Shown piece after piece: positions 15,185 to 32,779 of a stretch of 64,000 bases of DNA. The notes under the pieces were generated by a model that saw only the letters and a program-made list of their open reading frames with translations, was not told the DNA's origin and ran no database searches. Positions within the stretch are counted from its first letter, which is position 1, and the number at the start of each line of letters is the position of its first letter. The position numbers were made by a program, and so were the translations under genes. The stretch is from a virus. The stretch is taken from IMG/VR virus record IMGVR_UViG_3300045988_025287, positions 32,001 through 96,000 of that record; one strand, given 5' to 3'.

Positions 15185-15185
15185 T

Positions 15186-15610: not shown

Positions 15611-15663
15611 AATTATTACTTAAATTTACTAAAAGATATGAGTAAAACAAAAAACAAATTAAA

Positions 15664-15891: not shown

Positions 15892-15935
15892 TGTTAAATA
15901 AATTTTATTGTTAAATCAATTAAACTGTATTCAAA

Positions 15936-16403: not shown

Positions 16404-17048
16404 CTAAATCAAAACAAATAAAAGAGGTTCCAAGCTTAGAATCTTTGAATCAATAGCTTAGTATGTGAGTCGGAAATAGTTCTTTTGAACTCTAGGGCCT
16501 GAGGCATACAAGGACCTGAATTAACAGGTCTCATACAGAATTTTAAATCAGTTATGGGGAACTACCGTGAACTACTGATCATAAGTCTGAGATCGCGACA
16601 ATAAGATTGTCCTCTAGAAATAGAGAAACGCTCTAGTCGTGACATCAAGTTTAGACTGAATAATATGAATCTTTGAATCGTTTAAAGTATCTATACTTTA
16701 ACTATTATTCGTGTATTATCAAGATCAGTATAAGAGAACTAACCATTCTCAAGACCATAGGGTATATGACTTTGGTCGGTCATATACCCACAATAGAGTA
16801 GGTATAATACCGAACTGTAAAAAGAATTGACTGTTAGGTCTATTTATGCCTTCAGGTGACCGCGGGGCAGTACCGCGCACATCCACTAAAAAAATATAAT
16901 AAGGGTGTGAAATAGTATTGAACCGTTGAAACAGAATAGAATAGGTCAATAAGCAGATAACTGGCAATACAAGTTATGTAACGGACTATACTGGTATCGC
17001 AGCGTGATAACAGAGTCCAACGGCTAAGCTAATGTCGTAGAAAGCTGG
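16404..17048 (+). ncRNA. ORF-free G+C-rich island H
   Basis: About 645 nt. 13-nt exact direct repeat GAATCTTTGAATC at 16439-16451 and 16667-16679. GC hairpin CGCGG-GGCAGTA-CCGCG near 16862-16880. Ends at a tRNA-like module. Confidence 0.35.
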
Positions 17049-17128
17049 AGTAAGGATAGTACTCAGATGGTAGAGCGGTGAGATAATATCAAAAGCTGGT
17101 ATCGGAGGTTCGAGTCCTCCCCTTACTA
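17049..17128 (+). ncRNA. tRNA-like element without a canonical anticodon arm
   Basis: 7-bp acceptor AGTAAGG/CCTTACT. D-arm-like GTAC-TCAGATGGTA-GAGC. Perfect T arm GGAGG-TTCGAGT-CCTCC. I could not fold the 27 nt between the D and T arms into a 5-bp stem with a 7-nt loop. Confidence 0.5.
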
Positions 17129-17167
17129 CAAATAAAAAATTAAGTTTAATCAATAAATTAATTTGAA

Positions 17168-17446
17168 ATGGGATTAATGAATTTTATTAGACAGAATCTT
17201 CCAGAATCATGGGAGAAAGCTGCAACAGAGATGAGAATGAAGACTGAATTAATAACTCGTCTTCATAATGTAGTACCTCGTGCTTATAAGAATAAGTATC
17301 ACTACAAAGAAGGAATATCTTATATTAGAAGAGTATTCAATACTAAATGTGATATAATACATTTAGTAGATGCTACTGATATAGATATCACTAAATGGAA
17401 TGAATTAAGTAGTAAAATAAAAGAATACGAATATCAATGCGTGTAA
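17168..17446 (+). CDS. Hypothetical protein (92 aa)
   Basis: Intact ORF. Confidence 0.7.
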   Translation: MGLMNFIRQNLPESWEKAATEMRMKTELITRLHNVVPRAYKNKYHYKEGISYIRRVFNTKCDIIHLVDATDIDITKWNELSSKIKEYEYQCV

Positions 17447-17622
17447 GATATTTTGCTTGGTTTGACTCTAAACATGAAAGAACAGAGTTCATTAACTTAC
17501 TCAGATCAGCTAAATCTGATATTGATGCAGTTAATAAAGTGATGCAAAAATATCCAGAGTTAACTTTATCAGAAGTATCTGGAATAGTAAATAACTTTAA
17601 AAAAGAAATTAATCAACCATGA
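17437..17622 (+). CDS. Hypothetical protein (61 aa)
   Basis: Intact ORF. TGA stop overlaps the next ATG (ATGA). Confidence 0.6.
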   Translation: MRVRYFAWFDSKHERTEFINLLRSAKSDIDAVNKVMQKYPELTLSEVSGIVNNFKKEINQP

Positions 17623-18080
17623 GACTCAATCATCCTGGTATCTACAGAATTGTAGGTGAAAACTTTGAGCTTCTTGCCAATATAATTGGAGAAGTTCCTT
17701 GTATGAGAATTACTTCTGCACTATTAGTTAATAACTTAGTACAGAAAGGAGAATTTACTATACTTCCTGAAGACTCTATTGAAATTCAGAGCGTATTAGC
17801 GAATCCCGACAAATTTGTTTTTCTAGAGTATGAATACTCAGAAATATGTTCATTACCATCTTATCGTCAATCGATTCATGGTACAAAAATGCCCGCTATA
17901 ACTGACGAACAGTTAAAGACATTTACTAATAAATACCTTGAAGATATTGGAATATATGGACGAGGTGTAGCCGCAACTAAAGCTTATATATTAGAGACTA
18001 CAGGTTGGTCATTAGCCCAAATTAATGTAGTACTAATGAAAATAGCTAAAAGAGTAAAGCAGCAATATGTTAATTTATAG
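17619..18080 (+). CDS. Hypothetical protein (153 aa)
   Basis: Intact ORF. TAG stop with a backup TAA at 18114. Confidence 0.7.
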   Translation: MRLNHPGIYRIVGENFELLANIIGEVPCMRITSALLVNNLVQKGEFTILPEDSIEIQSVLANPDKFVFLEYEYSEICSLPSYRQSIHGTKMPAITDEQLKTFTNKYLEDIGIYGRGVAATKAYILETTGWSLAQINVVLMKIAKRVKQQYVNL

Positions 18081-18459
18081 TTTGACAAACCATATATATA
18101 CCACTTGGGGAGTTAAATATAGTTCATTTAACTGGCGACCTGAGTGGTATACCTTTTTAAGAATACAAAAAAGGGAATTAAAAGAACTAGAATTTCATGA
18201 ATCTTATAAAGTTCAAACTGTAAAATATTTAATATTTTGGTTTGATAATAGGATAATACAAAAGATAGGAGTCGATAAAGATTTAACTCTAAAGGTTCGT
18301 ATAAGAATATTATGTGGATTAATTAATAATACTCCTACTAGTGTACTTACTAGACCTATGAAAATAGAATTCATGGAATGTATATGGGATACTTATAATA
18401 AATTCTACAAAGATTGGTATGAATATTATTGTAGGAATGTACTAGAATTGCCATTTTAA
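18067..18459 (+). CDS. Hypothetical protein (130 aa)
   Basis: Intact ORF. Confidence 0.65.
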   Translation: MLIYSLTNHIYTTWGVKYSSFNWRPEWYTFLRIQKRELKELEFHESYKVQTVKYLIFWFDNRIIQKIGVDKDLTLKVRIRILCGLINNTPTSVLTRPMKIEFMECIWDTYNKFYKDWYEYYCRNVLELPF

Positions 18460-18507
18460 GTCTATAGAGTCTTGGTTGACTCTATAGGCACACTAAAGCC
18501 CGTAATT

Positions 18508-19068
18508 ATGACAGATGAAGAAAGACAACAGCTTTTAGATCTGATCAAGCAGGCTAAAGAAGGTAAACAATATGCCTTCACACAGCTTTATAATCGTTAT
18601 CACAGAATTATATACAATACTATATATAATATTGTACACAATAAGGATGTAACAGATGATTTAGTATCTGTAACGTTTACTAAAGCTTTCTTTAAGATAG
18701 CTAGTTATATTAATCATATTTCATTTGAAATGTGGTTAAAAACTATCGCTATAAATAGTAGTATTGATTATATACGACGTACTAAAAAAGAGAAGTATGA
18801 TTATGAGTTAGATAATGATAATAACTGTCTACAGGTAAGCAGTTCGGCCGACAGCTCACCAGAAGATGTCTACATCTATCATGAGACGGATAGTAAGTTA
18901 TCTGATGCACTAAACAGACTTCGCTATAAGTATAGGTATATACTTGAACTACGCACAGTTCAGAATCTCTCTTACAAGGAGATTGCTGAACATCTTGAGC
19001 TCTCTGAGTCTCAAGTAAAATCTCGCCTTAATAAAGCGAGAGAGAAATTAAAACAATTGTTAAACTAA
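18508..19068 (+). CDS. ECF-type sigma-70 family RNA polymerase sigma factor
   Basis: Region-2-like YNRYHRIIYNTIYNIVHNKDVTDDLVSVTFTKAF and region-4 HTH LSYKEIAEHLELSESQVKSRLNKAREKL. The ATG at 18508 is preferred over the TTG at 18472 used by the track. Confidence 0.8.
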   Translation: MTDEERQQLLDLIKQAKEGKQYAFTQLYNRYHRIIYNTIYNIVHNKDVTDDLVSVTFTKAFFKIASYINHISFEMWLKTIAINSSIDYIRRTKKEKYDYELDNDNNCLQVSSSADSSPEDVYIYHETDSKLSDALNRLRYKYRYILELRTVQNLSYKEIAEHLELSESQVKSRLNKAREKLKQLLN

Positions 19069-19084
19069 AAAACATTTACTAATT

Positions 19085-19456
19085 ATGACACCAGCAATTA
19101 TTGGGCTATTAACTGTAGCATTTATCCTTGCACGGTTATTCCGTAGTACAGGAATGTGGTGGAAACTTGTTTTCGCCATTATGGCTGGTCTATTAGTAGG
19201 TATTTTAAGTAAGGAAGTAGTTAAGTCAGATAATGATAAGACTACTTCTCTTACTAGTTTAGTTAGCACCATGAGTAATGATGATGCTTTAACATGCATG
19301 CAAAGCTTAGTAGCTACAGTGACAGAAGGTACTACCATTCGCCTTACTGGGGTTGCAGGTTACATTGTTAAAGATGAAGAATTATTCGATGCACTAACTA
19401 AAAGTAATACCTTTACTAATGGACGTGACTCACCAGAAATAGAGGATGATAGTTAA
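19085..19456 (+). CDS. Membrane protein directly downstream of the sigma factor (possible anti-sigma partner)
   Basis: Two N-terminal hydrophobic helices, then a soluble domain. 16-nt spacer after the sigma gene. The functional link rests on position only. Confidence 0.6.
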   Translation: MTPAIIGLLTVAFILARLFRSTGMWWKLVFAIMAGLLVGILSKEVVKSDNDKTTSLTSLVSTMSNDDALTCMQSLVATVTEGTTIRLTGVAGYIVKDEELFDALTKSNTFTNGRDSPEIEDDS

Positions 19457-19531
19457 CCTCTTAAACTAATCCATCTTTTTAATTGTACTTAATAATAACT
19501 TTTATTTTAACACTTTAAAACATTATCAAAA

Positions 19532-21046
19532 ATGGCAAAAGAAATGAGTAAGGCTGAAAGAAAGGCAGCCTTGAAAGCAGCAAAAGCAGCAGCAAAAGCT
19601 GAAGCTAAAGTAAACAACACTGAGAACAAGAAAGAGGAAACTAATCCTCAGGTAGATAACAAGCCGAAAGATGCTAAAGTAGAGGATGCAAAGAAAGCTC
19701 CTACTACAGCTAAGGAAACTAAGGTTCAGGCGAAGAAGGATGCCCCTAAAAGTCCGGATAAGCCTAAGAAGAAGGAAGAGAAAATTCCTACAATCATTCC
19801 TGAAGATGCAACAGGTAAGAACAGCCCTGAAAAGAAAGCTGTAGAACGTGCTGCAAACCTTATCACAGGAATTCCTACGGCCGGTATACCTATTGGTTCA
19901 AGAGAATCATCTGTTGATGGTAAGGCTATGTTAGCATTTGTAATGCAACAGCGTTATGCTAACAATGAAGAACTCAAGAAGCAATATCCTGAGTTATATG
20001 CAGACATCAATCGTAGCATTGATGTAGTTACTTTGTTAGCTCTTGTCGATGTACGTCAAGACTTGTTCGACCGTGGTGAACGTGGCGAATTGCAGTTACA
20101 GATAGCTGCAGACCAAGTATTACCGCTGCAAAGTATGGCAGAAATGCTAGGTATTAAACTAGCTCCTGCTAAAGCTCTGCCTGGGAATGATGGGCAAATG
20201 TCTATTAACTTCTCAGAAAGTGAAGTACCTACAGAACTTGCAAACAGCAAGCCAAAAGTAGAAATTCCAGAGCTTGATCCTAACAAGATTACTAATGATG
20301 AGGAATTGAAAACTGCCCTTAATTACCTCATCTCTAAAGAGAAGAATGTGGCAGAAAATATAGTTAACACTGTAGAATGGTATCGTGTATATCGCGGCCT
20401 GAAAGAAACTAATGCAGATAAGAAGCTTGCATTAGACGAAAAGACAGTTACAGATTGGATTAATGAGATATTCTCTATTATCCAACCTACAGCCATCTTA
20501 CGTGGTTTAGGTCGTGCTGTATACTTATATACTTCACAGACAGGTTCACCGTGTATGGCTCACTCTATCATGCATACACATATGTCTAAGGCTGGTTGGA
20601 GTGAAGAACAAGTAGCAGAAGCATTACGTGCTTTAATTGGAGAAAACTTCCGTTATAAACTGAAGGATGATCCTGAAGCAAAGCCTGAAGAAGATAAAGC
20701 AATTAATGCTATTACTGGCTTACTAGGCAATGACTATATTGATAAGTTATTTGCCGACTATACTATTACTACTGATGGTGTAGAAGACAGTAAGAAAGTT
20801 GAACTTGAAGCTGCACGTGAAGTTGCCCGTAAGGTTCTAGGGAGTATTCGTACCAATTACTTTGACAAACAGAAGGAGACTCCTACGCTTGATAAGATGC
20901 GTATGGTAGTAGGTCAGATTATTAATCTGTATCGAAATCCGGCTGATCGTCTTGCAGAGTATTGTCAAGGAGATTTAATCGCTCCAAAGGAAGACGAATA
21001 TCCTAAGAATGAAGAGAAATCTGAAGGGACTGAAAAAAAAAACTAA
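19532..21046 (+). CDS. Hypothetical 504-aa protein with Lys/Ala/Glu-rich N-terminal ~100 residues
   Basis: Intact ORF. The AKAAAKAEAK...KKDAPKSPDKPKKKEEK low-complexity head resembles histone-H1-like basic repeats. Confidence 0.85.
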   Translation: MAKEMSKAERKAALKAAKAAAKAEAKVNNTENKKEETNPQVDNKPKDAKVEDAKKAPTTAKETKVQAKKDAPKSPDKPKKKEEKIPTIIPEDATGKNSPEKKAVERAANLITGIPTAGIPIGSRESSVDGKAMLAFVMQQRYANNEELKKQYPELYADINRSIDVVTLLALVDVRQDLFDRGERGELQLQIAADQVLPLQSMAEMLGIKLAPAKALPGNDGQMSINFSESEVPTELANSKPKVEIPELDPNKITNDEELKTALNYLISKEKNVAENIVNTVEWYRVYRGLKETNADKKLALDEKTVTDWINEIFSIIQPTAILRGLGRAVYLYTSQTGSPCMAHSIMHTHMSKAGWSEEQVAEALRALIGENFRYKLKDDPEAKPEEDKAINAITGLLGNDYIDKLFADYTITTDGVEDSKKVELEAAREVARKVLGSIRTNYFDKQKETPTLDKMRMVVGQIINLYRNPADRLAEYCQGDLIAPKEDEYPKNEEKSEGTEKKN

Positions 21047-21117
21047 ACTGGTTTAAAAAGTTTCTTTTAAAAATTCATATCTTAGAAGAATAACCATTCT
21101 AATAAATATCATATCAA

Positions 21118-21519
21118 ATGAATAATAGAATGTTAACTGTAGTTGGAATGTTTGTTGTCAGTGTATTCATTGGTAGGCAAATGTTTGCAACTACAGAAGT
21201 TATACAGGCACAGCCTGTTATACCCTCTATAGTGGAGTTACCTAACTTCCCTAAAGTAATAAAAGAGGAGAAAAAGTCTGTAGATGAGATAAATGTCGAA
21301 GTCGACTTATCTACATTAGAAGTATCTGTGAAAGGAACAACAGACGCAAAAGTGAATGTAAAAACTACTGGTGAACCAAAGCCAGTAGTTAAGTGGAAAA
21401 CTAAAGTAATAGAGAAGACGAATTCAACAGGATATCCGAAAGTAAAAGCTATAAGTAAGGTATCTGATGACGAATCACCGGCAACTCCATTAACAATAGT
21501 AGATAAATATGAACAATAA
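21118..21519 (+). CDS. Hypothetical protein with N-terminal TM/signal-like segment
   Basis: Intact ORF. Confidence 0.7.
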   Translation: MNNRMLTVVGMFVVSVFIGRQMFATTEVIQAQPVIPSIVELPNFPKVIKEEKKSVDEINVEVDLSTLEVSVKGTTDAKVNVKTTGEPKPVVKWKTKVIEKTNSTGYPKVKAISKVSDDESPATPLTIVDKYEQ

Positions 21520-21931
21520 AATTATACTTCAACAGATGATACGTCTATCACGTATCATTAAGGACTCAAGAGAAGCAAGAGCTAAATTGAATTCTATTCA
21601 AGCTCAAACTGAATACTTTATAGTAGAAGGTAATCAGTCTACTTTTATTAGAGACCAAGCTAACAGTAGTATAACTAATTGTTTATATGTAGAACAGTAC
21701 TTACGTTCGTCTGTAAGTAATGCTTGTAAATGTTTGGATGGTTTTGATGCTTCAAAAATGGAACCAATAGACTACATCAGTAGTAGTGATGTAAAAAATA
21801 AGTTTGTCGACATATGTCTAGGTAAGAAAGTAGTAGCTTCTATTAATCTTACCACTGGTGAAATAATAAGCATCAATACACCAAAACAAGGATTAACGGC
21901 TAAAGATGACAGCCCTACGGTAAAAAGTTAG
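21509..21931 (+). CDS. Hypothetical protein (140 aa)
   Basis: Intact ORF. Ends TAG-TGA-TAA-TAA (21929-21940). Confidence 0.7.
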   Translation: MNNKIILQQMIRLSRIIKDSREARAKLNSIQAQTEYFIVEGNQSTFIRDQANSSITNCLYVEQYLRSSVSNACKCLDGFDASKMEPIDYISSSDVKNKFVDICLGKKVVASINLTTGEIISINTPKQGLTAKDDSPTVKS

Positions 21932-24037
21932 TGATAATAACCGTATAATAAATACTATAATTATATCACAGTTCGAGAGGAGTAAAACTATAGCGTAAAT
22001 CACTCCGAGGAAGTCATGCGGTAAGGTATATAATAATACTGGTCGCACCTGTCAGGGAGTTTGGAATCATTTCTCCATAGCCCGAAAAGTTACATGATCC
22101 GAGAATATGTTAGCAGCTAAAACTGTGAGATTACTCAAAAGGTAGGATGTTAGCTTATGTAATTGAAAACTACATAAGAGGGGATAAGCGTGTACAATCC
22201 TCATTAGGAAGTGAGAACCGTTTGGAGACTTCTAAAGACGCAGTACTAAAGAGAAGACACACTGAGTGCTAAACAGTACAAAGGGAACGAAATCCCTATA
22301 TCCGTATTAGTTTATCAAAAGCAGAATCAAAAAGGGATATAAACACGATGACGAAACAGGGACAATACGGTTCCTGACTTATTCCTTTGGAAAGAATAAG
22401 TAAAGCCGAGAGGCAAAGGTTAGTTTCACCTTAAGAAGCAGCCAGCTCGTGGAAAAAAAGAGATTGCAGATAACGCATTACCGGTCTCCAAAATCGGTTA
22501 ACAAAAGCGCTACTGTGCGTCCAGAAAGGGAAACAGGCTAACTCTAGTGTTCAGTATACATCAGCTGTGATGCAATATGCAATTGTGGATATTGGAACTT
22601 ATACTTATGAAGGGAGTAAACTACTAATACTAATGTAAGGATAACCGTGTTATGGTACATACTTATACAAAGTAAGGATATGAAAGCTGGAAACGCAATG
22701 ATCCAAGAATTAAACGTGCAAACGTTAAAGCTTGACTGATTAACGTGGAGCAGGAGCCAATCCTGTACATTATCGTAAATAGTGTGCTGTAAAAGAACTT
22801 ACGTATAAGGGATGAGGTATATGAGATTGATACCATCTTTCAAGTCTAAGGTGACTCATGAGTTTTGTCGTGTAGATGAGTATAATGTATGAGAAATGAC
22901 GAGACTAAAATATAATAGTCTAAAATGCGAGTATGAGGGCGCTATAACCCTGAACTTAGAAGCGGACACCTTTAGCAAGTGTTATTACGTGGTAATAAAT
23001 AAGATTAGGAGATGCAGAGAAAACTCCTTGTAAAAAACGGCAGAGCTTAAGCATTTCAAGATATGTAAATGCCTTTGATTTATTATGCTAGTTCACACCA
23101 GAATTTTGGATAATAAACATCGTTATGGATTAAGGAAGTAAATAGAGTTATTAAAGATGCTTTAGAGTTAGAATCCTAAAACCAGTTTAGTAATAATTAT
23201 AGTATATGATGATATACTTAATGAATCAATTTTACTTACGCTGAGTAGAGTCAGCTATGACAAAATGAACTCTAATTATTTAACTTTTTAATTAATTGGG
23301 AAGTCCAATGATAGTACAGAGATTTCAAACTACTATTGTAAAGTAGGAGTTAAGGAGTACGAGTCACCCCGACTGCCAACCGACATTGCTGACTGTTAAG
23401 ACACTCGTAAAGTACAATGCGCAACATTGTATGTGAGAGAACGCTGAGTCGTTAGTTACCTGTGTTGTTTCTTACACTGTCTCTGTAAGGGCAATAGTAC
23501 ACTTATGATGAAAGTATTCCATAAGCAAACAAGGAGACGATGATAGGTGGAAATCCTAATGTTCGTGCAGTATAAACAAACAAATCCTGGAAATGGTATA
23601 GATGGGTCATGCTATAAGCAATGAGTCTATGATTTTAGTAATGTTAGATTAAACAACCGTAATTCTAGCGAATTTCGATAATATCCGGACATACTCAGTA
23701 GGTTCTAAGGAACTGATGATAAAGTGGCTTATATCGCATCTAATCGCGTTATACGCTTACGGTGAGGGGTGCGTTAAGCATCGAAGGAATTGAATCTTAA
23801 CCGTCGAAACGGGACGTTAAAACAAAAAATATCAGAAATTATCAGAAGTAACTCACAGAGTATTTCTCATAAATTTTCAATTTATTATTTTTATGCTTAG
23901 TAGATTATGTGATTGAGTTCACCTATTCCAATTTTGAATAGCTATTAAATAATCGAACGGTGGAGAGACTTTAACAATTTTTTGTATAACTATGTTCGTA
24001 TTGGTATATCAAGTACGGACTCAAAAAGGAACATTTT
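21932..24037. ncRNA. ORF-free G+C-rich island I (2.1 kb), probably two or more structured RNAs
   Basis: No ORF of 60 codons or more in any frame. An AT-rich spacer at about 23160-23300 splits it into parts of roughly 1.1 kb and 0.55 kb. Hairpin GCATTT/AAATGC plus T-rich tail at 23051-23084. The GGGACGTTAAAA motif at 23811-23824 is shared with islands E and F. Confidence 0.4.
23830..23847 (+). promoter_or_regulatory. TATCAGAA direct repeats (2 copies, 10-nt phase)
   Basis: TATCAGAAATTATCAGAA is identical to 31970-31987. About 190 nt upstream of gene 24038. Confidence 0.5.
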
Positions 24038-24664
24038 ATGGAAAATAATATTAATGGAGCTAACACTCCGGGTTTAGCAGCTCAAATTTTAGCTCGCTAT
24101 CGGCAAACAGCCCAGAAGTTTGGGCCTTTCTTTGGACAGCAGATATTTACAATCGTAGCACAGACTCCTGACCTTAAGTGGAAAGAAGATGTAGCTACAG
24201 GTAAGAATACTTTCCGTCAGGAAGTAAAAGCTTATATTCTCAAGGCTATTGATGTTGAGTCAGTTAGTTTACTTGAGAAGGATGTTGATGGACGTCCGAA
24301 AATCATCTTGAATGAAAAGAAGAATGATCCATCATTAGTTTTTGAGCTTGCTGATCCTGAATTTACTAAAGCAACCCGGCAGAATGTAATTGAATGTATT
24401 GAACGGTTGAGTAAACCAGGCTCTAAGCCTATGTTCTTTACAGCTGAAGAACTTCCTATGTTGAATGACTTAACTAAGTTATCCAACCAGAGTGTGTTGA
24501 ACTTCTATGAAGAAATGACACGTAAGTGTATGCAGTTAGCTGAAACTGTCCGTGGTTATATGGATATGAATCAGCGTATGCAGGTTGAGTATTTACGGCA
24601 GTGCGGTTTAGATAATCAGGAAACTGAAATTCACGTAACTGCTACAATTACTGAAGAAAAATAG
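24038..24664 (+). CDS. Hypothetical protein (208 aa), ends in TAG-TAG
   Basis: Intact ORF. The next ORF is in the same frame, 4 codons later. Confidence 0.75.
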   Translation: MENNINGANTPGLAAQILARYRQTAQKFGPFFGQQIFTIVAQTPDLKWKEDVATGKNTFRQEVKAYILKAIDVESVSLLEKDVDGRPKIILNEKKNDPSLVFELADPEFTKATRQNVIECIERLSKPGSKPMFFTAEELPMLNDLTKLSNQSVLNFYEEMTRKCMQLAETVRGYMDMNQRMQVEYLRQCGLDNQETEIHVTATITEEK

Positions 24665-24673
24665 TAGAAGCTT

Positions 24674-25237
24674 ATGAACGGCAGACTTTCTTCATTACGT
24701 GTAGAACTTCTGCGAATTCTAATATGTTCTGAGCCAGCCATATTGTCTAAAATTCAGATTTGGAATGGAGGACGTACAGAAACGCCTAAAAAAGTAAGTA
24801 TTAGAGAAGATGGACGGGTCTTCCTATTTTACGGAAGTGGGCCATTATGGTGGCAAAGATTATTTAATACTTATGAATCGGTAAGTATTATAGATGCTTC
24901 TATTAGTATAGCAGATGCAATCACTGGGTCGAATTCGACTCGAAATGAATTTGCTTTTAACGAGATTACTAAGAGTATAATCGACGAAGCAAAGAAACGT
25001 AAGGATTTCGATTGTATTGTTGATATTTTGTTTGATTGTATGAGGAATTGTTCAGATGGGGAACTACATTCCAAATGGATTAATCAAGAGAATATCAAAA
25101 AATATGCAAGAGAAAATGGTATAACCAATGTTGAAGACATTAACCTTGAAGGGCTTAATGGAATAGTTGGAATTAAGACTGGTGGACGGGTTATTCCTAT
25201 AGTACTCGGCCAGTTAAGAAAATTTAGAAAATATTGA
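24674..25237 (+). CDS. Hypothetical protein (187 aa), or C-terminal half of a 399-aa readthrough product
   Basis: Same frame as 24038..24664, separated only by TAG TAG AAG CTT. Confidence 0.7.
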   Translation: MNGRLSSLRVELLRILICSEPAILSKIQIWNGGRTETPKKVSIREDGRVFLFYGSGPLWWQRLFNTYESVSIIDASISIADAITGSNSTRNEFAFNEITKSIIDEAKKRKDFDCIVDILFDCMRNCSDGELHSKWINQENIKKYARENGITNVEDINLEGLNGIVGIKTGGRVIPIVLGQLRKFRKY

Positions 25238-25268
25238 TTTGGATATTATCTTAAAACAACATAATTTC

Positions 25269-25319
25269 ATAGTACTGAACTGGGTACTATTTATAGTAAT
25301 TACTGCTGAATTGGGCAGT
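25269..25319 (+). other. Two similar stem-loops with loop TGAA(C/T)TGG just upstream of tRNA-Arg
   Basis: ATAGTAC-TGAACTGG-GTACTAT (25269-25290) and ACTGC-TGAATTGG-GCAGT (25302-25319). Confidence 0.5.
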
Positions 25320-25330
25320 TATTACTACAC

Positions 25331-25404
25331 AGTTCCTTAGCTCAACTGAATAGAGCAACACACTTCTAATGTGTAGGTTATGGGTTTGAATCCCATAGGA
25401 ACTA
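25331..25404 (+). tRNA. tRNA-Arg (anticodon UCU)
   Basis: Acceptor AGTTCCT/AGGAACT, D stem GCTC/GAGC, anticodon stem ACACA/TGTGT with loop CTTCTAA, T arm ATGGG-TTTGAAT-CCCAT. Confidence 0.9.
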
Positions 25405-25459
25405 CTACTGGTAGATGTAGTTTGGTCGAGTATTTAACATTTAAAAAACATTAATCAAT

Positions 25460-25987
25460 ATGAAATCAATTACATCAATATATTTGCTCGGAGATAAGAA
25501 TAAAGGTAAAATCGGTCGTATTAAGGAAATTTCTAATGAAATTACTTTCTATTGGAATAAGATTAAAGAAGAAAATGTTATTCCGAAAGAAGCTAAACGT
25601 AATTATGACTTAAAAGCATTACTTCAGAAGATTGAAGCTCTATCTGAAGAACGTATATTATTAAAACTGTATATGCAGTGTATTAATATGGGTTATAAGA
25701 AGTTTACAGAATTACCAAAGGATAATAATTATCTTAATATCTTTACTTTATGTGAAAAGACTGAACAGCTGTTTCATTTAAGTAAGATCAAGACTCTTGA
25801 TCCGAAGCTTAAGCGTTCTAAAGGAAAGAAGAACTTAGATAAAACTGAAGAACTTACTTCAGCTTATATTGCAGGTCTAAAAAATAAATTACAATTAGAA
25901 ATTAACAAAATTAATAAAGATATTACAGATTTTAATGAGAAGGCAGAGCTTAACATTGAAGCTCCAGCTTTATCATTAGCTGCATAA
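25460..25987 (+). CDS. Hypothetical protein (175 aa)
   Basis: Intact ORF. Confidence 0.75.
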   Translation: MKSITSIYLLGDKNKGKIGRIKEISNEITFYWNKIKEENVIPKEAKRNYDLKALLQKIEALSEERILLKLYMQCINMGYKKFTELPKDNNYLNIFTLCEKTEQLFHLSKIKTLDPKLKRSKGKKNLDKTEELTSAYIAGLKNKLQLEINKINKDITDFNEKAELNIEAPALSLAA

Positions 25988-25992
25988 ATAAT

Positions 25993-26019
25993 GTTTAAAG
26001 GGGGAATCCCCCTTTAAAC
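25993..26019. terminator. Perfect 12-bp palindromic hairpin with 3-nt loop
   Basis: GTTTAAAGGGGG-AAT-CCCCCTTTAAAC immediately after the stop of 25460..25987. No clear U-run, so its terminator function is uncertain. Confidence 0.4.
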
Positions 26020-26048
26020 TAGTATTAACAATTTAATTATCAAAAATT

Positions 26049-26840
26049 ATGAAAAAGATATTAGCAAAGAAAAATAATAGAACCGGTATAAAGAACCATA
26101 GAAGTAACAAGAATAAGTTTCGTAGAAGCTATAAGGCTTATCAAATAATGACGGTAAGCAAGAAACCGGGACCATCTGGAGTCATTAAATATGACGAGAA
26201 TGGGAAAGTAATAGGATTTGTAAAGTGGGCAGGAAATAAGAAGCAATCTGAATATACCACTAAAGTAGCAAAAGACGCTATGAATGAAAACAAATCTATA
26301 AAACAATCTAAAAAAGAATTAATCAAGAATATTCTTATGAAAGCAGGATATGATCCTACAATACGATATACCCGTAAAGAGAAGAAACATTTTACGCGTA
26401 TAGTTAAGAACAATATGTTCACTAAACCTAAAGCTATTACGTTAACAACTGAACAAATCAAAGAGAAGATAAAAGCAGATAAACTTGCAAGAAAATCTAT
26501 GCAGGCTAAATTTGATGAGTCAGTACGTAGTAATCCTTTAACTCCTAAGAAAGGTAAACAGACAGCTCCTAGTGCTGCAGAGTTGTCTATTAAAGAAAAG
26601 CCTAATAAAAGAAATTTCCAATATGCTATACAAAGAAGATGCTCTGATAACGATATGAAAGTATACGATTTTGCTACTGGAAACTTTGAAGCATCTACCA
26701 GAGATGAAGCAAAGAATAAAGCTGCTAAATTAGCTAAAAAGTACAAGAAAGATACATCATTTACAGGAGTAACAGTAAAGGATATTGAAGGAGATAACAG
26801 TATAACTTATTATAGTCGTAATAAGTTATTAGCAGCATAA
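26049..26840 (+). CDS. Very basic Lys-rich protein (263 aa)
   Basis: Intact ORF. The antisense ORFs on the minus strand were rejected. Confidence 0.8.
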   Translation: MKKILAKKNNRTGIKNHRSNKNKFRRSYKAYQIMTVSKKPGPSGVIKYDENGKVIGFVKWAGNKKQSEYTTKVAKDAMNENKSIKQSKKELIKNILMKAGYDPTIRYTRKEKKHFTRIVKNNMFTKPKAITLTTEQIKEKIKADKLARKSMQAKFDESVRSNPLTPKKGKQTAPSAAELSIKEKPNKRNFQYAIQRRCSDNDMKVYDFATGNFEASTRDEAKNKAAKLAKKYKKDTSFTGVTVKDIEGDNSITYYSRNKLLAA

Positions 26841-26880
26841 AAAACTAATAATATTTCTGTTTCCATGTTTTAAACTGGTT

Positions 26881-26951
26881 TCTCATGTAGCTCAGTGGTA
26901 GAGCCGCTACTATGTAGTGTGAACGCGTTGGTTCGAGTCCAACCATGAGAT
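26881..26951 (+). ncRNA. tRNA-like element with aberrant anticodon arm (loop contains CUA)
   Basis: Good acceptor TCTCATG/CATGAGA, D arm GCTC-AGTGGTA-GAGC and T arm GTTGG-TTCGAGT-CCAAC. The anticodon region CGCTA-CTATG-TAGTG gives a 5-nt loop, or a 7-nt loop ACUAUGU with C at position 33. Confidence 0.5.
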
Positions 26952-26973
26952 CTAACTTTTAAATACTTATAAT

Positions 26974-28953
26974 ATGATTATACGAGGAAAGATAGTCTAC
27001 GTATATGATATTGAGGTATTTCAAAATATCTTTCATTGTTCGGTAAAAAATACAGAAACAAACGACATCTATAAGTTTGAGATATCAGAGAGGAAAAATC
27101 AACTAAGAGAATTAGTTAAATTCTTTAAACAGGTAGATAAATATATTACTTGGGGAGATTATTATACTACAAATATTAATATTCCAGCAAATATTATATT
27201 CTGTGGTTATAATAACTTGCATTATGATAATCCTATAATCAATTATATAATTGAATATGAAGATAAATTAATGCAATATAATATACCTACTATATGTAGT
27301 TCTATATTTAACCTAAGTAAAACTATAACTACTTCGAGTGAAGATAATATAGATGCATGGAAGCATTGGAAGTATCAGATATGGTTTGATACTTTTGATA
27401 TTCTTACTATGTTATATTCTAATAAACTTAGAGTAGGTTTAAAGGAAATTCAAGTAACAATGCAATATCCTAATGTACAGGAATTTGTATGTGATTGGAC
27501 TAAACCTCTTCCTTTAGAAGATTTTGACTCTATGATAGATTATAATATTAATGATATTGAATCTACTTCAGAATTATTAAATAGATGTAAGAAAGACATT
27601 GATTTACGAATCGCTATTGAAGATGAGTATGGAGTAAGAGTACTTAGTAAAGATGGCGTAAATATTGGAATAAAGATTTTAACTCAGAAATATCTAGAAA
27701 AGACAGGTTTAACTTGGCAGGATATTAAAGATTTAAGATCTCCAATGAGTGTAATACCATTGAAAGATGTAATATTACCATTTATTAAATATGATAGCCC
27801 TATTCTGCAAAGAGTATTAGATGATATGAAAAATCAGATAGTATCTCCAGGTAGAAAAGGATATGAGAATAAGTTTGTATTTAATAATTTACGCTATTCT
27901 GTAGGAGTAGGAGGTATTCATTCTGTGAATAGTCCTGAAATCATTATTCCTAGAGATGATGAAATGCTTATAGATATAGATGTAGCTTCTCTATACCCAA
28001 GTATGCTTATAGAATATGAATTCTATCCTAAACATTTAGGTAAAGAATTCCTAGAAGTATATAAGCAAATTAAAGATGAGCGAATTGAAGCTAAACACAA
28101 CGGCGATAAAGTAAAAAATGAAACTTTAAAGTTAGCTTTAAATGGTTTATCAGGTAACTTACAGAATGAACATAATTTCTGTTATGCCCCCGAAGCTGCT
28201 ATGAAAATTAGAATCAACGGACAGTTACTATTACTTATGTTAGCTGAAAAATTAACTCAAATTGGATGCCGAATCGTCCAAGCAAATACTGATGGTTTAT
28301 TCGTCTTACTAAAGAAAGATATATATTCTAAAGTAAACAGTATTTGTAGAGAATGGGAACAGCTTACTAAACTTACTTTAGAAGAAGATCGTTTTAAAGC
28401 AATGTATCAATATGCTATTAATGATTATTTTGCTATTACTGAAGATAACAAAGTAAAAGAGAAAGGAATGTTTATTACTACTGTAAAATTAGGTAAAGGA
28501 TTAACTCCAAAGATTATACCTAAAGCAGTAATAAGTTTCTTTAAAGATGGAATATCAGTTGAAGATACAATTAAGAATTGTACAGATATAAGAGATTTTC
28601 TAATGTCTGAGAAAACTGGTAAACAATGGCATGTTGAATATATGAACGAGGAGCAACAAAGAACTAATCGTTTCTACGCATCTACTAATGGTGGATACTT
28701 GTGGAAATGGAAAGATACTGGTCATAAAGAAGGTGAAATTATAACATATACTGAGCCATACGTAGGAGAACGTAAATATAAGGCTTCTGCAAGACAGTAT
28801 CAGAATATGCTTACTGCATCTGGTGTTACTCTTCTAAATAAATTTGATAATAAACCAATTGAAGAAAGAAAGATTAATTATAGGTATTATATTATGGAAG
28901 CCTATAAGATAATCAGAGATTTAAAACCGTTACAATTGAGCCTATGGGATTAA
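26974..28953 (+). CDS. Family B DNA polymerase
   Basis: Exo I DIEVF, Exo II NNLHYDNPII, Exo III YNINDIES. Pol motif A DVASLYPS, motif B KLALNGLSGN, motif C QANTDGLFV. Confidence 0.9.
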   Translation: MIIRGKIVYVYDIEVFQNIFHCSVKNTETNDIYKFEISERKNQLRELVKFFKQVDKYITWGDYYTTNINIPANIIFCGYNNLHYDNPIINYIIEYEDKLMQYNIPTICSSIFNLSKTITTSSEDNIDAWKHWKYQIWFDTFDILTMLYSNKLRVGLKEIQVTMQYPNVQEFVCDWTKPLPLEDFDSMIDYNINDIESTSELLNRCKKDIDLRIAIEDEYGVRVLSKDGVNIGIKILTQKYLEKTGLTWQDIKDLRSPMSVIPLKDVILPFIKYDSPILQRVLDDMKNQIVSPGRKGYENKFVFNNLRYSVGVGGIHSVNSPEIIIPRDDEMLIDIDVASLYPSMLIEYEFYPKHLGKEFLEVYKQIKDERIEAKHNGDKVKNETLKLALNGLSGNLQNEHNFCYAPEAAMKIRINGQLLLLMLAEKLTQIGCRIVQANTDGLFVLLKKDIYSKVNSICREWEQLTKLTLEEDRFKAMYQYAINDYFAITEDNKVKEKGMFITTVKLGKGLTPKIIPKAVISFFKDGISVEDTIKNCTDIRDFLMSEKTGKQWHVEYMNEEQQRTNRFYASTNGGYLWKWKDTGHKEGEIITYTEPYVGERKYKASARQYQNMLTASGVTLLNKFDNKPIEERKINYRYYIMEAYKIIRDLKPLQLSLWD

Positions 28954-28961
28954 CAGAGGCT

Positions 28962-28980
28962 TATCAGATATATTTCAGAT
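28962..28980 (+). promoter_or_regulatory. T(A/T)TCAGAT repeats, 10-nt phase
   Basis: TATCAGATATATTTCAGAT, 31-49 nt upstream of gene 29011. Related to the TATCAGAA repeats. Confidence 0.4.
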
Positions 28981-29010
28981 AAACCATAAGCTTATATAAT
29001 ATATAAGACT

Positions 29011-29580
29011 ATGATTTTAGAAATAGACACTTCTATCTTAGATAGAATACCAAAACTATCTATTAATCAATTAGTATTCCTAACACTTGTATTGAATGAT
29101 ATCAAAACAATCAATCAAGACATTCAGAGACTTCTCAGCCTAGTTAATGAAGAAGAAATACAAGAGTTAGAGACTCAAGGTTTAATCTCTATCCAGTATG
29201 ATAGAGATACTCAAGTCATAAGTAAAACAGAGAAACTAGAAGAACTTCTTAAAGAAGATAAAGCTATGTTTGATATGTTCTATGACCAATTTCCAGTTTA
29301 TGTTATGAGACCTGATGGAACTAAAGGATTTCTCAGAGCTAATGTAAACAAATGTAGGAAAGAATATAACCACATTGTAGGCAAATCTAAAGCAATGCAT
29401 GAACATATCATGAATTGTTTAAAATACGAAATAGATGAGCGTATGCGTACAGGTAAAATAGGTTATATGAAAACTATGTGGAAATGGCTCACTCAACGTG
29501 AGTGGGAAACTATTGAGGAACAAATGAAAGTAGAAACTCCTAACCAAAATTACTATAATTATGGAGAATATATCTACTAA
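29011..29580 (+). CDS. Hypothetical protein, possible replication initiation/organizer protein
   Basis: Intact ORF directly upstream of, and overlapping, the helicase gene. The function is positional inference only. Confidence 0.6.
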   Translation: MILEIDTSILDRIPKLSINQLVFLTLVLNDIKTINQDIQRLLSLVNEEEIQELETQGLISIQYDRDTQVISKTEKLEELLKEDKAMFDMFYDQFPVYVMRPDGTKGFLRANVNKCRKEYNHIVGKSKAMHEHIMNCLKYEIDERMRTGKIGYMKTMWKWLTQREWETIEEQMKVETPNQNYYNYGEYIY

Positions 29581-30347
29581 AACACTAACATTTAGACATA
29601 TATCCTCTGCTACTAACGAAGCAGTAGAATATATTCGTAAGAGAAAGAATCATGAGATTGTTTCTTTACGTACTAGATGGAGTAAGTTTAATAAATCCTG
29701 TATGGGAGGCATTGAACCTAATACTATATATACTATTGTAGGTATATCTGGTAGCGGTAAGAGTTCATTTGTAAATACGCTTGAAAGTGATTTAATAGAC
29801 TTAAATTCTAATCAGGATGTAGTAGTACTTAATTTTTCATTTGAAATGTTAAGTTCTAGACAAGTAGGTAGAAAATTGAGCAGTAAGTTAAGGCAAACTA
29901 CTGCTCAGCTATATAGTTCTAGTAGTGATTTAGACAATACACTATTAGAAGAAGTAGAACAAACCTCTCAACAGATAAAATCATATCCGATATATTATGT
30001 AGATACACCGGGTACTGTTGCAGATATAGCATCTACCATTGATTACTTTTATGAGAATAAAGCTAAAGGCAAGAAATTTGTGATTATACTTGATCATACT
30101 TTACTTGTTGAAGGGCAAAATCGTGAAAGTGCACTACAAGTGATTTCCGATTTACAGAAACTGTTTATTAGAGTAAAGAAGTTTCCTGATACTACAATAA
30201 TACAGTTATCACAGATGAATCGTAATATCGAAAATCCTGAAAGAATTAATAATCCATCTATGCATTATCCAATGCGTAGCGATATATCTTCTGCTGATAC
30301 TATCTTTCATGCATCAGATTACGTTATATGTATTCATAGGCCAGAAT
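29561..30347 (+). CDS. DnaB-like replicative helicase, exon 1
   Basis: Walker A GISGSGKSS, Walker B VIILDH, SQMNR. The ORF stops at IHRPE-TAA, exactly where a group I P1 helix places a U-G splice site (U at 30347). Confidence 0.8.
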
Positions 30348-31188
30348 AAATAAAGCTGTTCTGGATAAATCCCGTTAAACGGTGAAAACCCGATGGGGCA
30401 ACGCCGTACCAAGTTTATATAGAAATATATAAATAGTGTCTAACGACTAGTAGTGAAACTACCGCTATTAAAGCTATGTTAATAATTCTACCACGAAAGC
30501 GGGAAATATAAACTTATATATTTATTATACGTTCCATATATAGTAATAATTAAATATTCTTATATGGAACTATTAATAGACGGAAAGAAAATAAATATTA
30601 GAGATAAAAATAGAATAAAAGAAGAAAATAATACTATTCTATTCAGATGTACTATATGTGGTAAATATCTACCTATTAGTGAGTTTGAACTTCGATGGAA
30701 TAATAGTAAAACTGAAAAAAATAATGTAAGATCACAATGTAAACATTGTCGTACAGAGGAAAGTAGGCTATACCACTATTATAGAAGAAGGAAATATACT
30801 GAACAAGTAGTAAAAGAAAAAATGTTACATTATGATAAACTAAAACATGATTTAGAATATCATAATAAAATAGTATTATATAGATATGCTAAGAACCATT
30901 CAAAACGATGTAATATTGAATTTAATATTACTCCTAATGATATAATAATTCCTAAAGAATGTCCAATTCTTAAGCATGAGTTTATTTTAAATGATAAACA
31001 ATATACTTATTCTATTGATCGAATTGACAATAGTAAAGGATATATACCTGGAAATATTGCTGTTATTTCAAGATTAGCAAATATAATGAAAAATTGTGCT
31101 AACTTTGAACAATTAATATTATTTTCTGAAAATATAAAAGATTATATTAAGAAATAGTCTAAACTACACGTATAAGATGAAGGTGTAG
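30348..31188 (+). mobile_element. Group I intron (IA-like) carrying an HNH homing endonuclease ORF in P8
   Basis: Hand model. P1 30341-30347/30358-30364. P3 30371-30375/30499-30503. J3/4 UAA. P4 30379-30384/30402-30407, with A-rich J4/5 and J5/4. P5 CCC-GAUG-GGG. P6 8 bp with a GAAA loop (30414-30433). P7 GACUA 30445-30449 / UAGUC 31155-31159. P9 31164-31169/31183-31188. The 3' end is uncertain (31188 or 31202). Confidence 0.65.
30564..31157 (+). CDS. HNH homing endonuclease (intron-encoded)
   Basis: Intact 197-aa ORF. Cys clusters CTICGK...CKHC. IDRIDNSKGYIPGNIAVISRLAN is HNH-like. Its TAG stop coincides with the P7 3' strand. Confidence 0.85.
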   Translation: MELLIDGKKINIRDKNRIKEENNTILFRCTICGKYLPISEFELRWNNSKTEKNNVRSQCKHCRTEESRLYHYYRRRKYTEQVVKEKMLHYDKLKHDLEYHNKIVLYRYAKNHSKRCNIEFNITPNDIIIPKECPILKHEFILNDKQYTYSIDRIDNSKGYIPGNIAVISRLANIMKNCANFEQLILFSENIKDYIKK

Positions 31189-31418
31189 AGTGCAAGATAA
31201 AGAGCTTGCAGAGAATACAAATTGTGCTCAATATACAGAGTTATGGACCAAATCGTCTACCAGTAAGAGATAAAGTTTATTTGCATATTCTAAAGAATAG
31301 AGATGCAGGTGAATGTTCTATACTTGAGTTTGATAATGACCTTAAATACAATAACTTAATTGAGACTATACGAGAAGATGAACCAGTAAGGAAGATTTCG
31401 TTTAGTAATAACAATTAA
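31189..31418 (+). CDS. DnaB-like replicative helicase, exon 2 (start approximate)
   Basis: Carries VYLHILKNRDAGE, matching the DnaB C-terminal KNRxG motif. Frame is open from 31176. Joining U30347 to A31189 keeps the frame but creates a UAG codon at the junction. Confidence 0.55.
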
Positions 31419-31432
31419 AAAGGCTGAAAATT

Positions 31433-31948
31433 ATGAAATCATATACATTTACATTACCGAAAAATACTAAGAGTGCAAAAACATATAAAGAGTCTTTAAT
31501 GGAACGAGTAATTAATGCTTATCCTTGGATGACTGTAGAAAGTAAGAGTGATTATCCTTCTTGTAGCTATGGCATTGAATATGCAGGTGCAGGTGATATC
31601 ATTACTTTAGGTTTAAGTAAGACTCATAATATTGGATGGTTACCGAAGGAATGTGCTAATTGTCCGTTTAAGTGTTGGGGAGATAATGTAATTAATTTCG
31701 ATTTAGAAACAGAATTCTTCAAGGCAATTAACGCACTTGATATTTATGCAAAGGAACATTGTCCGTTTGATGTTGACTATGACTTTAAAGATGAGTTTGG
31801 TACTCCGGTTAAAATCTTTGATAACTTCGTACAGATTGGTTATGAAGTAATTCCTATTGCATTTGGTTCTTTGAACTATTTGAAACCGAAGACAAAGAAA
31901 ACTATTATTGATATCACGATTAATATTAAGAAACGTGGTTTGTTTTAA
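31433..31948 (+). CDS. Hypothetical protein (171 aa)
   Basis: Intact ORF. Confidence 0.75.
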   Translation: MKSYTFTLPKNTKSAKTYKESLMERVINAYPWMTVESKSDYPSCSYGIEYAGAGDIITLGLSKTHNIGWLPKECANCPFKCWGDNVINFDLETEFFKAINALDIYAKEHCPFDVDYDFKDEFGTPVKIFDNFVQIGYEVIPIAFGSLNYLKPKTKKTIIDITINIKKRGLF

Positions 31949-31969
31949 TTAAAATATCTTATTCCATTT

Positions 31970-31998
31970 TATCAGAAATTATCAGAACTTTATCAGAG
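31970..31998 (+). promoter_or_regulatory. TATCAGA(A/G) direct repeats (3 copies, 10-11-nt phase)
   Basis: Copies start at 31970, 31980 and 31991. They lie 25-53 nt upstream of gene 32023. The first 18 nt are identical to 23830-23847. Confidence 0.55.
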
Positions 31999-32022
31999 GA
32001 ATACAAAAAAATAAAAGCTTTT

Positions 32023-32763
32023 ATGATTGTATTACCAAAAGAAAAAGTAAAAGCTAAAGTAGAAAATCCTAGATTTTTAATAATTTTTGGTCGTCCTAAA
32101 TCAGGAAAAACTACTTTAGCAGCGGCTCTAGATAATAACCTTATTATTGACTTAGAAGGTGGTTCAGAGTTTTTAGAGGCATTAGCAATTCAAGCTAGAT
32201 CAGTAAATGAACTAGGAGATATAGCGAATGCCATTAGAGAAGAAATTAAAATATCAGGTAGTAAGCCATATAAGTATATTACTATAGATAATGCTACACG
32301 TCTTGAAGAAATGTGCATGAGTTTCGCAATTCAACTTTACAAAAATACTCAAATGGGAAAGCGTTATGAAGGTACAGACTTAAGAACCTTACCAAATGGG
32401 GCAGGTTATTTATACATAAGACAAGCTGTAAGAAAAGTTATTGATATGTTCCGTGGTTTATGCGACAATTTTATCCTTATTGGTCATACTAAGGATAAAT
32501 TAATTAACAAAAACGGACAAGAATTATCAGAGATGTCTCTTGATTTAGTGGGTGCATTAGCAAATATTATATGTGGCGAAGCAGATGCTGTTGGCTATGT
32601 ATATAGAAAGAAGAATGAGACACATATCTCATTTGAAGGCGGAGATAATTCTGTTATTGAAGCTAGAGCGCCTCATTTAAGAGGGAAGAATATAGTAATA
32701 GCAGAAAGCGATGAAAACAATAACATTACTGCTTATTGGAATAAAGTTTATTTACCTGAATAA
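32023..32763 (+). CDS. RecA-fold ATPase (AAA_24 / Sak4-like recombination protein)
   Basis: Walker A GRPKSGKTT, later ILIGH. Size and position (next to the SSB-like gene) are typical of phage Sak4-type ATPases. Family assignment is from memory. Confidence 0.6.
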   Translation: MIVLPKEKVKAKVENPRFLIIFGRPKSGKTTLAAALDNNLIIDLEGGSEFLEALAIQARSVNELGDIANAIREEIKISGSKPYKYITIDNATRLEEMCMSFAIQLYKNTQMGKRYEGTDLRTLPNGAGYLYIRQAVRKVIDMFRGLCDNFILIGHTKDKLINKNGQELSEMSLDLVGALANIICGEADAVGYVYRKKNETHISFEGGDNSVIEARAPHLRGKNIVIAESDENNNITAYWNKVYLPE

Positions 32764-32779
32764 TTAAAAATAAGATATT

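Follow-up and report, generated by a model that had tools for sequence, protein, structure and literature searches.

Two adjacent early genes of a TAG-recoded crAss-like phage joined by a lineage-specific, probably neutral in-frame amber bridge

Results

Gene content of the locus

The window analysed here is a stretch of 64,000 nucleotides of viral DNA (positions 32,001 to 96,000 of the IMG/VR record IMGVR_UViG_3300045988_025287). Two genes of its plus strand are flanked by a 2.1-kb non-coding region on one side and by the DNA polymerase cluster on the other. Gene A (24038..24664) begins with an ATG at 24038, comprises 208 codons and ends with a TAG stop (24662-24664). It is directly followed by a 9-nt spacer, TAG-AAG-CTT (24665..24673), the first triplet of which is a second in-frame TAG (24665-24667). 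Gene B (24674..25237, plus strand) then starts at its own ATG (24674), runs for 187 codons and ends with a TGA. The junction reads ...GAA GAA AAA TAG TAG AAG CTT ATG AAC GGC..., and one frame is kept throughout, i.e. 208+2+2+187 = 399 codons if TAG is a sense codon. This arrangement was described in an earlier note on this DNA, and its coordinates, frame, spacer and 399-codon sum all proved exact when the sequence was rechecked. An assembly error at the junction was rejected, as 49 out of 51 independent assemblies are identical, RefSeq cr53_1 included. Two antisense ORFs (24232..24486 and 24871..25074) were also rejected, because polymorphism concentrates at the third positions of the plus-strand frames. 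A promoter/terminator scan at the junction, run with a sigma-70 model that is ill-suited to Bacteroidota-type promoters, returned none above shuffled sequences.

Gene A encodes a conserved hypothetical protein of Loutivirinae crAss-like phages, with homologues in 33 clusters (51-99% identity, all about 200-260 aa). The product of gene B is also a conserved hypothetical protein, for which 58 homologue clusters were found (52-89% identity; most are about 180-211 aa long and a few are shorter fragments); the B homologues examined share the N-terminus M-[NDSK]-[GS]-R-[LI]-S. No significant match to A was obtained from Pfam, PHROG, profile comparison with PDB sequences or Foldseek against the PDB. 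Likewise, Pfam, PHROGs and profile comparison with PDB sequences gave nothing significant for B, the AF2 model of which had no Foldseek match (best Foldseek E-values against the PDB of 0.4 and 1.5 with the A and B models). In the AF2 models, which were predicted separately for the two proteins, A (mean pLDDT of 79) has an alpha/beta domain and a 53-residue helix and ends in roughly 20 disordered residues, and B (mean pLDDT of 67) is mixed alpha/beta, its first six or so residues being disordered. The adjacency of A and B is constant and their spacer never exceeds 19 nt in any lineage, which suggests co-expression and possibly a complex of the two products.

The ORF-free 2.1-kb region upstream of gene A (21932..24037) displays 71-77% nucleotide identity across genera, more than its flanking genes. 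RNAalifold gave -514 for this region versus about -250 for column shuffles, and 145 pairs show changes on both sides versus about 52 in column shuffles. A search of Rfam with this region gave no match. It is predicted to be a conserved structured non-coding region. The window also carries a cluster of RAGATH-6, -7 and -9 motifs together with two Hatchet ribozyme motifs.

Phage identity and partition of the genetic code

Over positions 23500-25500, the window is 96.6% identical to the crAss-like phage cr53_1 (NC_055889.1), and over 21935-24037 it is 92.9% identical, with a shared gene order. It thus shows species-level identity and synteny with this phage from human faeces, Blohavirus americanus (Suoliviridae, Loutivirinae). 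The G+C content is about 32%, and the strand blocks track GC skew.

The late block (37796..64000, minus strand), which contains the virion and giant-protein genes, is open solely when TAG is a sense codon. Under the standard code this block is shattered, and reading TAG as sense yields ORFs of 1558, 4162, 657, 613 and 1411 codons; the summed ORF length then grows from 15045 to 22952 aa, and the longest ORF, of 665 codons under the standard code, reaches 4175 codons. Six late ORFs contain 131 in-frame TAGs in 8649 codons. The early blocks, i.e. the plus-strand replication block (about 9000..37700) and a small minus-strand block (1460..8425), contain no internal TAG in 8767 codons, versus 132 expected at the late-gene frequency. 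Either code yields near-identical products from the early and replication genes, TAG being absent or located at ORF ends, and the A/B pair is the sole exception. TAG recoding in crAss-like phages is known to concern mostly late genes (Yutin et al. 2021, PMC7886860), and the early blocks of such phages have been called "dual-coded", with near-identical products under both codes (Mgcod, bioRxiv 10.1101/2022.06.29.495998). Metaproteomics has shown that crAss-like phages decode TAG as Gln, and no recoded peptides turned up in their code-11 region (PMC9523058).

Default ARAGORN on the window returned only Leu, Arg and His tRNAs, and no CUA tRNA. With its intron search, a split tRNA was detected at 920..1220 (minus strand), with a 228-nt intron (958..1185) in the anticodon loop. 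Splicing after ...CTCT and ...GCATG leaves the loop CTCTAAC, identical to that of the cr53_1 tRNA, and ARAGORN then calls a 73-nt tRNA with the anticodon CTA, i.e. an amber suppressor; the splice sites display U(-1) and a terminal G. In cr53_1 and four other relatives, an uninterrupted tRNA(CTA) lies just upstream of the terminase gene. The tRNA of the window occupies the syntenic place, with a body that differs from the relatives' tRNA and with the insertion in its anticodon loop. The Rfam model RF00028 (Intron_gpI) matches 992..1195 over its full length with E = 0.0035, at 21.3 bits, below the gathering score of 50. The exact exon/intron junction of the split tRNA was found in only 3 IMG/VR contigs. 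Since a tRNA that would carry a CUA anticodon after splicing is encoded at the head of the late operon, the means of reading TAG is present, gated by transcription at this position and probably also by splicing. The premise of the earlier note, a code that depends on the stage of infection, is therefore borne out by the 131 TAGs in late codons, their absence from early codons and the encoded CUA tRNA.

Besides A/B, the only in-frame tandem TAG within the window lies in gene 1977..2291 (minus strand, 104 codons), two genes upstream of the suppressor tRNA. The doublet occupies codons 38-39 (window 2175-2180), as had been correctly remarked in passing in the earlier note. The homologues of this gene in cr53_1, cr4_1, MT835839, cr113_1 and cr60_1 are continuous across the doublet, where the aligned residues are E-TAG, E-T or Q-K. 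Downstream of it, the motif DGQ[IV][IV]T..E[VL][IV]D is conserved, and single TAGs are found at other positions. As these homologues are both continuous and conserved across the doublet, the TAG-TAG of gene 1977..2291 must be decoded; a double TAG is therefore no absolute terminator when the suppressor tRNA is present. No tandem in-frame TAG was found in the 8649 codons of the late genes, where about 2 would be expected, a difference that is not significant (P ~0.14). Gene 1977..2291 is therefore the one case that supports the decoding of doubles.

The junction in related phages

We surveyed the junction in 89 loci, i.e. 80 IMG/VR loci, the window and eight GenBank/RefSeq loci. The sequence TAG TAG AAG CTT ATG was found in 49 of them and TAA TAG AAG CTT ATG in 2, and the other 38 are distant loci. 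The 49 TAG-TAG loci are at least 98% identical in A and thus represent a single species. In the 38 distant loci (six from RefSeq and 32 from IMG/VR; A at most 59% identical), TAA terminates gene A, 5-8 nt lie between the genes and B is offset by +1 or +2. The RefSeq genomes cr56_1, cr60_1, cr52_1, cr4_1, cr109_1 and cr113_1 as well as the unannotated MT835863 (L008) each encode A and B as two genes, with a TAA stop on A, a frame of +1 or +2 for B and 5, 7 or 8 nt between them.

Intermediate relatives (L095-L104) were recovered via the protein database. In the closest one for A (L100, 92%), A ends with TAA and the contig ends 2 nt past this stop. L103 (A 88%) reads AAA TAG AGA TTA TGA: its A has a TAG stop, a backup TGA overlaps the ATG of B, and B is in frame +2. 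In L101 and L102 (A 87%) the junction is CAA TAA TAGAAGCT ATG with B in frame +2, and in L104 (A 81%) a TAA is followed by 19 nt with B in frame +1. Those compared by B comprise L095 and L096 (87%; TAA AAATT ATG, frame +2), L097 (83%; TAA ATAGAGGCTT ATG, frame +1) and L099 (75%; TAA GCATC ATG, frame +2). L098 (B 83%), with TGA TAGAGT ATG, has B in frame, but behind a TGA that is not recoded.

A and B are thus separate in about 50 relatives beyond the species (A 51-92%). Their A genes end with TAA, with TGA or with TAG and a nearby TGA; spacers range from 5 to 19 nt, apart from one 4-nt overlap, and all three frame offsets of B relative to A occur. The in-frame bridge made only of TAG is limited to one species-level cluster and is not conserved among relatives. 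The earlier note had held that homologues always split, with different frames or spacers, would speak against a conditional fusion, and this is what was found in all relatives outside the species. A TAGA(A/G) motif recurs in the spacers of relatives (after the stop in L101/L102 and L097, in TGA TAGAGT and in AAA TAG AGA TTATGA). By this comparison, the second TAG predates the doublet, as it was already in the spacers of related lineages. The steps to the doublet are a change from TAA to TAG and a one-base change in the spacer (AAGCT to AAGCTT). Stop type, spacer length and phase of the junction are thus free to drift, and both proteins stay conserved.

Variation within the species

From the 51 genomes of the species, 49 carry TAG-TAG at the junction and 2 carry TAA-TAG (L037 and L053); the fusion is impossible in these two because of the TAA at the end of A. 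Among 48 comparable genomes, 115 of the 1200 sites in A/B are variable, 91 of them at third codon positions, i.e. 23% of third positions versus 2.9% of first and second positions. This concentration, which is seen in gene A (53 of 62 sites) and in gene B (38 of 52), indicates that both are under purifying selection in their annotated frames. Within the 15-nt junction, the sole variable site is a G/A in the stop of A (46 TAG and 2 TAA in the 48 genomes), which, judging from this sample, behaves like a synonymous site. A neighbour-joining tree places the two TAA genomes in different subclades amid a TAG-TAG background. The potential for read-through thus seems to have been lost twice, and the loss tolerated. 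The tree was built from about 3 kb of very similar sequence, so it does not firmly establish that the two TAA variants arose independently.

Stand-alone B and the fused database entries

A profile search of 1.84 billion representative proteins gave 86 matches to the B family, nearly all of 160-200 aa, which align from residue 1-30 and have their own N-terminus. No full-length A-B fusion was found among these 86 representative matches or by homology searches run separately with A and with B, and the few long matches (353-1971 aa) align solely over a short repeated motif (B positions ~33-63). B has its own ATG and a conserved N-terminus and so would not need read-through to be expressed. Fused entries are limited to RefSeq YP_010112236.1, from cr53_1, and P0001, a 399-aa cluster of 2461 metagenome proteins with "QQ" at the junction. 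In other datasets, these sequences have also been called as separate 208-aa proteins (P0065-P0067). Both fused entries are products of table-15 gene calling on the same species.

Stop codons of the early genes

The 51 early genes end with TAA (35 genes), TGA (8 genes) or TAG (8 genes). In the seven TAG-terminated early genes other than A, a TAA or TGA follows 0-11 codons on; A is the only one in the window without such a backup. The median distance to the backup stop is 5 codons in these seven TAG genes versus 11 in TAA/TGA genes (one-sided Mann-Whitney test, p = 0.013). A stop is directly followed by another stop in 3 of the 51 early genes (TAA-TAA, TAG-TGA and TAG-TAG). Three in-frame early pairs out of 51 have no intervening TAA or TGA (18067 to 18508, 33633 to 34641 and 24038 to 24674). 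Given 8 TAG stops among 51, the probability that at least one of these three fusable pairs has a TAG stop is 0.41. The A/B arrangement is therefore not beyond chance: with 51 early genes, a single in-frame pair bridged by TAG is to be expected.

In the table-15 RefSeq annotations of cr53_1, cr4_1 and cr56_1, the in-frame TAGs of the replication block are confined to the first 3-4 or the last few codons of a CDS, except for one in cr4_1, 34 codons ahead of the CDS end, and for the A/B CDS of cr53_1. No other TAG bridge joining two genes was found in the replication blocks of cr4_1, cr56_1 and cr53_1. Because the TAGs are placed at the ends and the backup stops are close, TAG in the early block behaves like a stop with its read-through kept short, A/B being the one exception in the window.

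Discussion

We consider it likely that A and B are two genes which a lineage-specific, probably neutral in-frame amber bridge connects in a single species, and which table-15 annotation has turned into a chimera. They would be distinct neighbours within the early/middle (replication) module, tightly linked and probably coupled in translation. In such a dual-coded module, a TAG at an ORF end would terminate translation in the usual way for as long as the host release factor is the only reader of this codon, and the TAG of gene A would be one of these ordinary early stops. The second TAG would belong to the older spacer motif ahead of the ATG of B. In one species, a single-base change in spacer length would have brought B into the frame of A, and the stop of A would have changed from TAA to TAG. 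Once the spliced CUA tRNA is made, ribosomes still on the A/B mRNA may decode both TAGs as Gln. If this mRNA is still in translation late, some A-QQKL-B would be the likely outcome, a fusion whose existence and timing we infer.

Such a late 399-aa read-through product is mechanistically plausible, since TAG is a sense codon in the late genes, a CUA tRNA is encoded and the tandem in gene 1977..2291 must be decoded; it is probably incidental rather than a selected switch. Because disordered tails flank the junction in the models, the fusion would probably consist of two domains on a flexible tether and be harmless. A counterpoint to the incidental view is that read-through could be ended by a single transition to TAA, yet 49 of the 51 genomes retain TAG-TAG; the fusion is therefore at least tolerated. 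Of the conditional 399-aa fusion proposed in the earlier note, the late recoding of TAG and the plausibility of read-through stand, but a locus that switches its product with infection stage by design finds no support, as the bridge occurs in one species only, TAA-TAG variants exist and B stands alone. As for the doubled TAG, proposed in that note to be first a tight terminator and then a linker, a doublet can be decoded, as gene 1977..2291 shows, and the second TAG is an older feature of the spacer.

A programmed fusion would have A and B made separately early, behind a tight TAG-TAG, and a 399-aa A-QQKL-B with a distinct function made late. Much of the machinery is there, as TAG goes from stop to sense in this phage, a suppressor tRNA is encoded and a tandem TAG is decoded in gene 1977..2291. 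Moreover, TAG-TAG is kept in 49 of 51 genomes, the spacer is invariant in the 48 comparable genomes, the disordered tails on either side would make a flexible linker, and A alone among the TAG-terminated early genes lacks a TAA/TGA backup. However, the TAG-only bridge does not extend beyond one species-level cluster, and in the other lineages examined, from 92% identity in A downwards, A ends with TAA or TGA or has a backup TGA, and the frame of B varies. Two natural TAA-TAG variants, a B gene with its own conserved start that is stand-alone throughout the family, an arrangement expected by chance (P = 0.41) and replication blocks of cr4_1 and cr56_1 without a similar bridge also argue against such a programme, which we regard as unlikely. 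We find it improbable, too, that the doublet is a selected, reinforced stop, in which the second TAG would back up the first, read-through would fall to the square of the single-codon efficiency and a harmful fusion would stay rare. The unusually close backup stops of TAG-terminated early genes (median of 5 versus 11, p = 0.013) and the TAA-TAG or TGA-TAG tandems of L101/L102, L098, L037 and L053 agree with this explanation, as does the lack of in-frame tandem TAGs in the 8649 late codons (about 2 expected), although that lack is not significant (P ~0.14). Yet in a phage that suppresses TAG this codon makes a poor backup, TAA being far more effective, one transition away and actually found. 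In addition, L097 and L103 have the TAG motif in their spacer without any tandem-stop role, which suggests that it is part of the upstream region of B.

At the other extreme, A and B could form one constitutive gene of 399 aa, TAG being read as Gln whenever it is expressed. The frame is indeed open across the junction if TAG is a sense codon, cr53_1 has a single annotated CDS there (YP_010112236.1), and the 399-aa cluster P0001 has 2461 members, but both annotations come automatically from whole-genome translation with table 15. The block around the pair lacks internal TAGs (0 in 8767 codons), every relative encodes A and B as two proteins, the same sequences have been called as separate 208-aa proteins (P0065-P0067) and TAA-TAG variants occur, so that this explanation is extremely improbable. 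Finally, it is quite doubtful, and we put it forward as speculation, that the TAG-TAG bridge serves as a sensor of the suppressor-tRNA level. A share of tethered A-QQKL-B with changed activity would then appear late, and gene 1977..2291 would be under the same gate of squared dependence. If this were true, the locus would hold a recently evolved protein fusion driven by the code switch in one phage species.

Programmed read-through of stop codons is well known in viruses, for instance in the A1 coat extension of Qbeta and in retroviral gag-pol. These extensions have no independent start, are conserved among relatives and are set by the local context and host tRNAs. As in these systems, a leaky or suppressed stop at A/B would let one mRNA yield a second, longer product. 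In contrast with them, B is an independent gene with a conserved start, the in-frame arrangement of A and B is not conserved, and their read-through would need a phage-encoded suppressor tRNA. In bacteria, tandem stop codons serve as termination back-ups, and at A/B, too, a second in-frame stop directly adjoins the first; TAA-TAA and TAG-TGA are also found in the window. Unlike the bacterial tandems, both stops at A/B are the reassigned codon, and the backup would fail exactly when it is needed.

The window resembles the described dual-coded TAG-recoded crAss-like phages in several respects: late genes are rich in TAG and replication genes free of it, by strand; the suppressor tRNA lies at the 5' end of the late block; and TAGs at the ends of early ORFs lead to short alternative C-terminal "isoforms". 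In the described dual-coded cases, almost identical proteins are produced by both codes, whereas in the species of the window two whole genes are joined. Gene fusions that arise when an alternative code is applied have been taken as a warning sign (Borges et al., bioRxiv 10.1101/2021.08.26.457843). Fusions appear in this literature as an annotation artefact to screen out, with no described isoform (bioRxiv 10.1101/2022.06.29.495998, PMC7886860, bioRxiv 10.1101/2021.08.26.457843).

For annotation, the consequence is that whole-genome translation with table 15 merges A and B, and the chimera has entered both YP_010112236.1 and a cluster of 2461 members; assigning the code block by block avoids it. 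If the fusion were functional, it would represent a new route from a genetic-code switch to protein architecture, which the comparative data make unlikely. On our preferred reading, two genes with a probably neutral bridge, A/B is an extreme case of the two-isoform effect of dual coding, and its junction would be a natural reporter of the suppression of TAG, and of tandem TAG, on early-module mRNAs late in infection.

A large non-coding region upstream of gene A

Directly upstream of gene A (24038..24664, plus strand), the plus strand of the window carries a 2.1-kb stretch (21932..24037) in which no ORF reaches 60 aa under the standard code or, when TAG is read as sense, 150 codons. Nor does the annotation of cr53_1 (NC_055889.1, Blohavirus americanus, the same species as the window phage) place any CDS in its counterpart. 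The length of the region is kept among relatives (2.04-2.13 kb), and its identity between Loutivirinae genera (71-77%) exceeds the conservation of the flanking coding genes. Using RNAalifold on nine sequences, we obtained a score of -514, compared with about -250 in column shuffles, and 145 pairs with double-sided changes, compared with about 52; the minus strand scores worse than the plus strand. The region matches no Rfam family and appears to be a structured non-coding RNA of very large size.

Further upstream, Rfam matches that are all above the gathering score were found on the plus strand within 10625..17007: three RAGATH motifs (RAGATH-6 at 10625-10775, RAGATH-7 at 10870-11092 and RAGATH-9 at 15448-15608), two Hatchet ribozymes (12016-12112, 13887-14022) and, at 16826-17007, a "permuted tmRNA". 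All of them are intergenic, among small early genes.

Variation within the species

Several sites of the window differ from cr53_1. In the window, gene B (24674..25237, plus strand) and the gene that follows are separated by a tRNA-Arg(TCT) (25331..25405); at this position cr53_1 carries an HNH endonuclease gene and no tRNA (3428..3853 of L001, a stretch of cr53_1). The window DNA polymerase (26974..28953) is a single ORF of 659 aa, while that of cr53_1 (29289..32101 of L090, another stretch) is annotated as two pieces flanking another HNH endonuclease gene. The homing-endonuclease content is therefore variable within the species. At 6028..6894, between the thymidylate synthase gene (6894..7760, minus strand) and the next gene, the window is about 700 bp longer than cr53_1; the sole long frame at this place (6188..6907, minus strand) is open only with five TAGs as sense. 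ARAGORN also gave a plus-strand tRNA-His (26881..26952) with the unusual anticodon ATG instead of GTG, and its call in cr53_1 is identical.

Suppressor tRNA and the code switch

The amber-suppressor tRNA (920..1220, minus strand) is interrupted by a 228-nt intron (958..1185), probably group I. Because this intron splits the anticodon loop, default tRNA finders miss the tRNA. The tRNA(CTA) at the same site of cr53_1 is a different one and is uninterrupted. The exact exon/intron junction was found in only three IMG/VR contigs, two from the species of the window and one of 99,848 bp.

Two genes upstream of this tRNA, a small conserved gene (1977..2291, minus strand) contains an in-frame TAG-TAG in an otherwise TAG-free block. 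Its homologues have single TAGs elsewhere in the gene or no TAG, and in the same small block of cr4_1, a RefSeq crAss-like relative, two neighbouring genes also have internal TAGs. This gene looks to be gated by suppressor level, and splicing of the tRNA intron could further delay the code switch. Finally, in the early blocks (1460..37712), genes stopping at TAG have a much closer TAA/TGA backup than other genes (median 5 vs. 11 codons; P = 0.013), which is consistent with selection limiting read-through extensions after the code switch.
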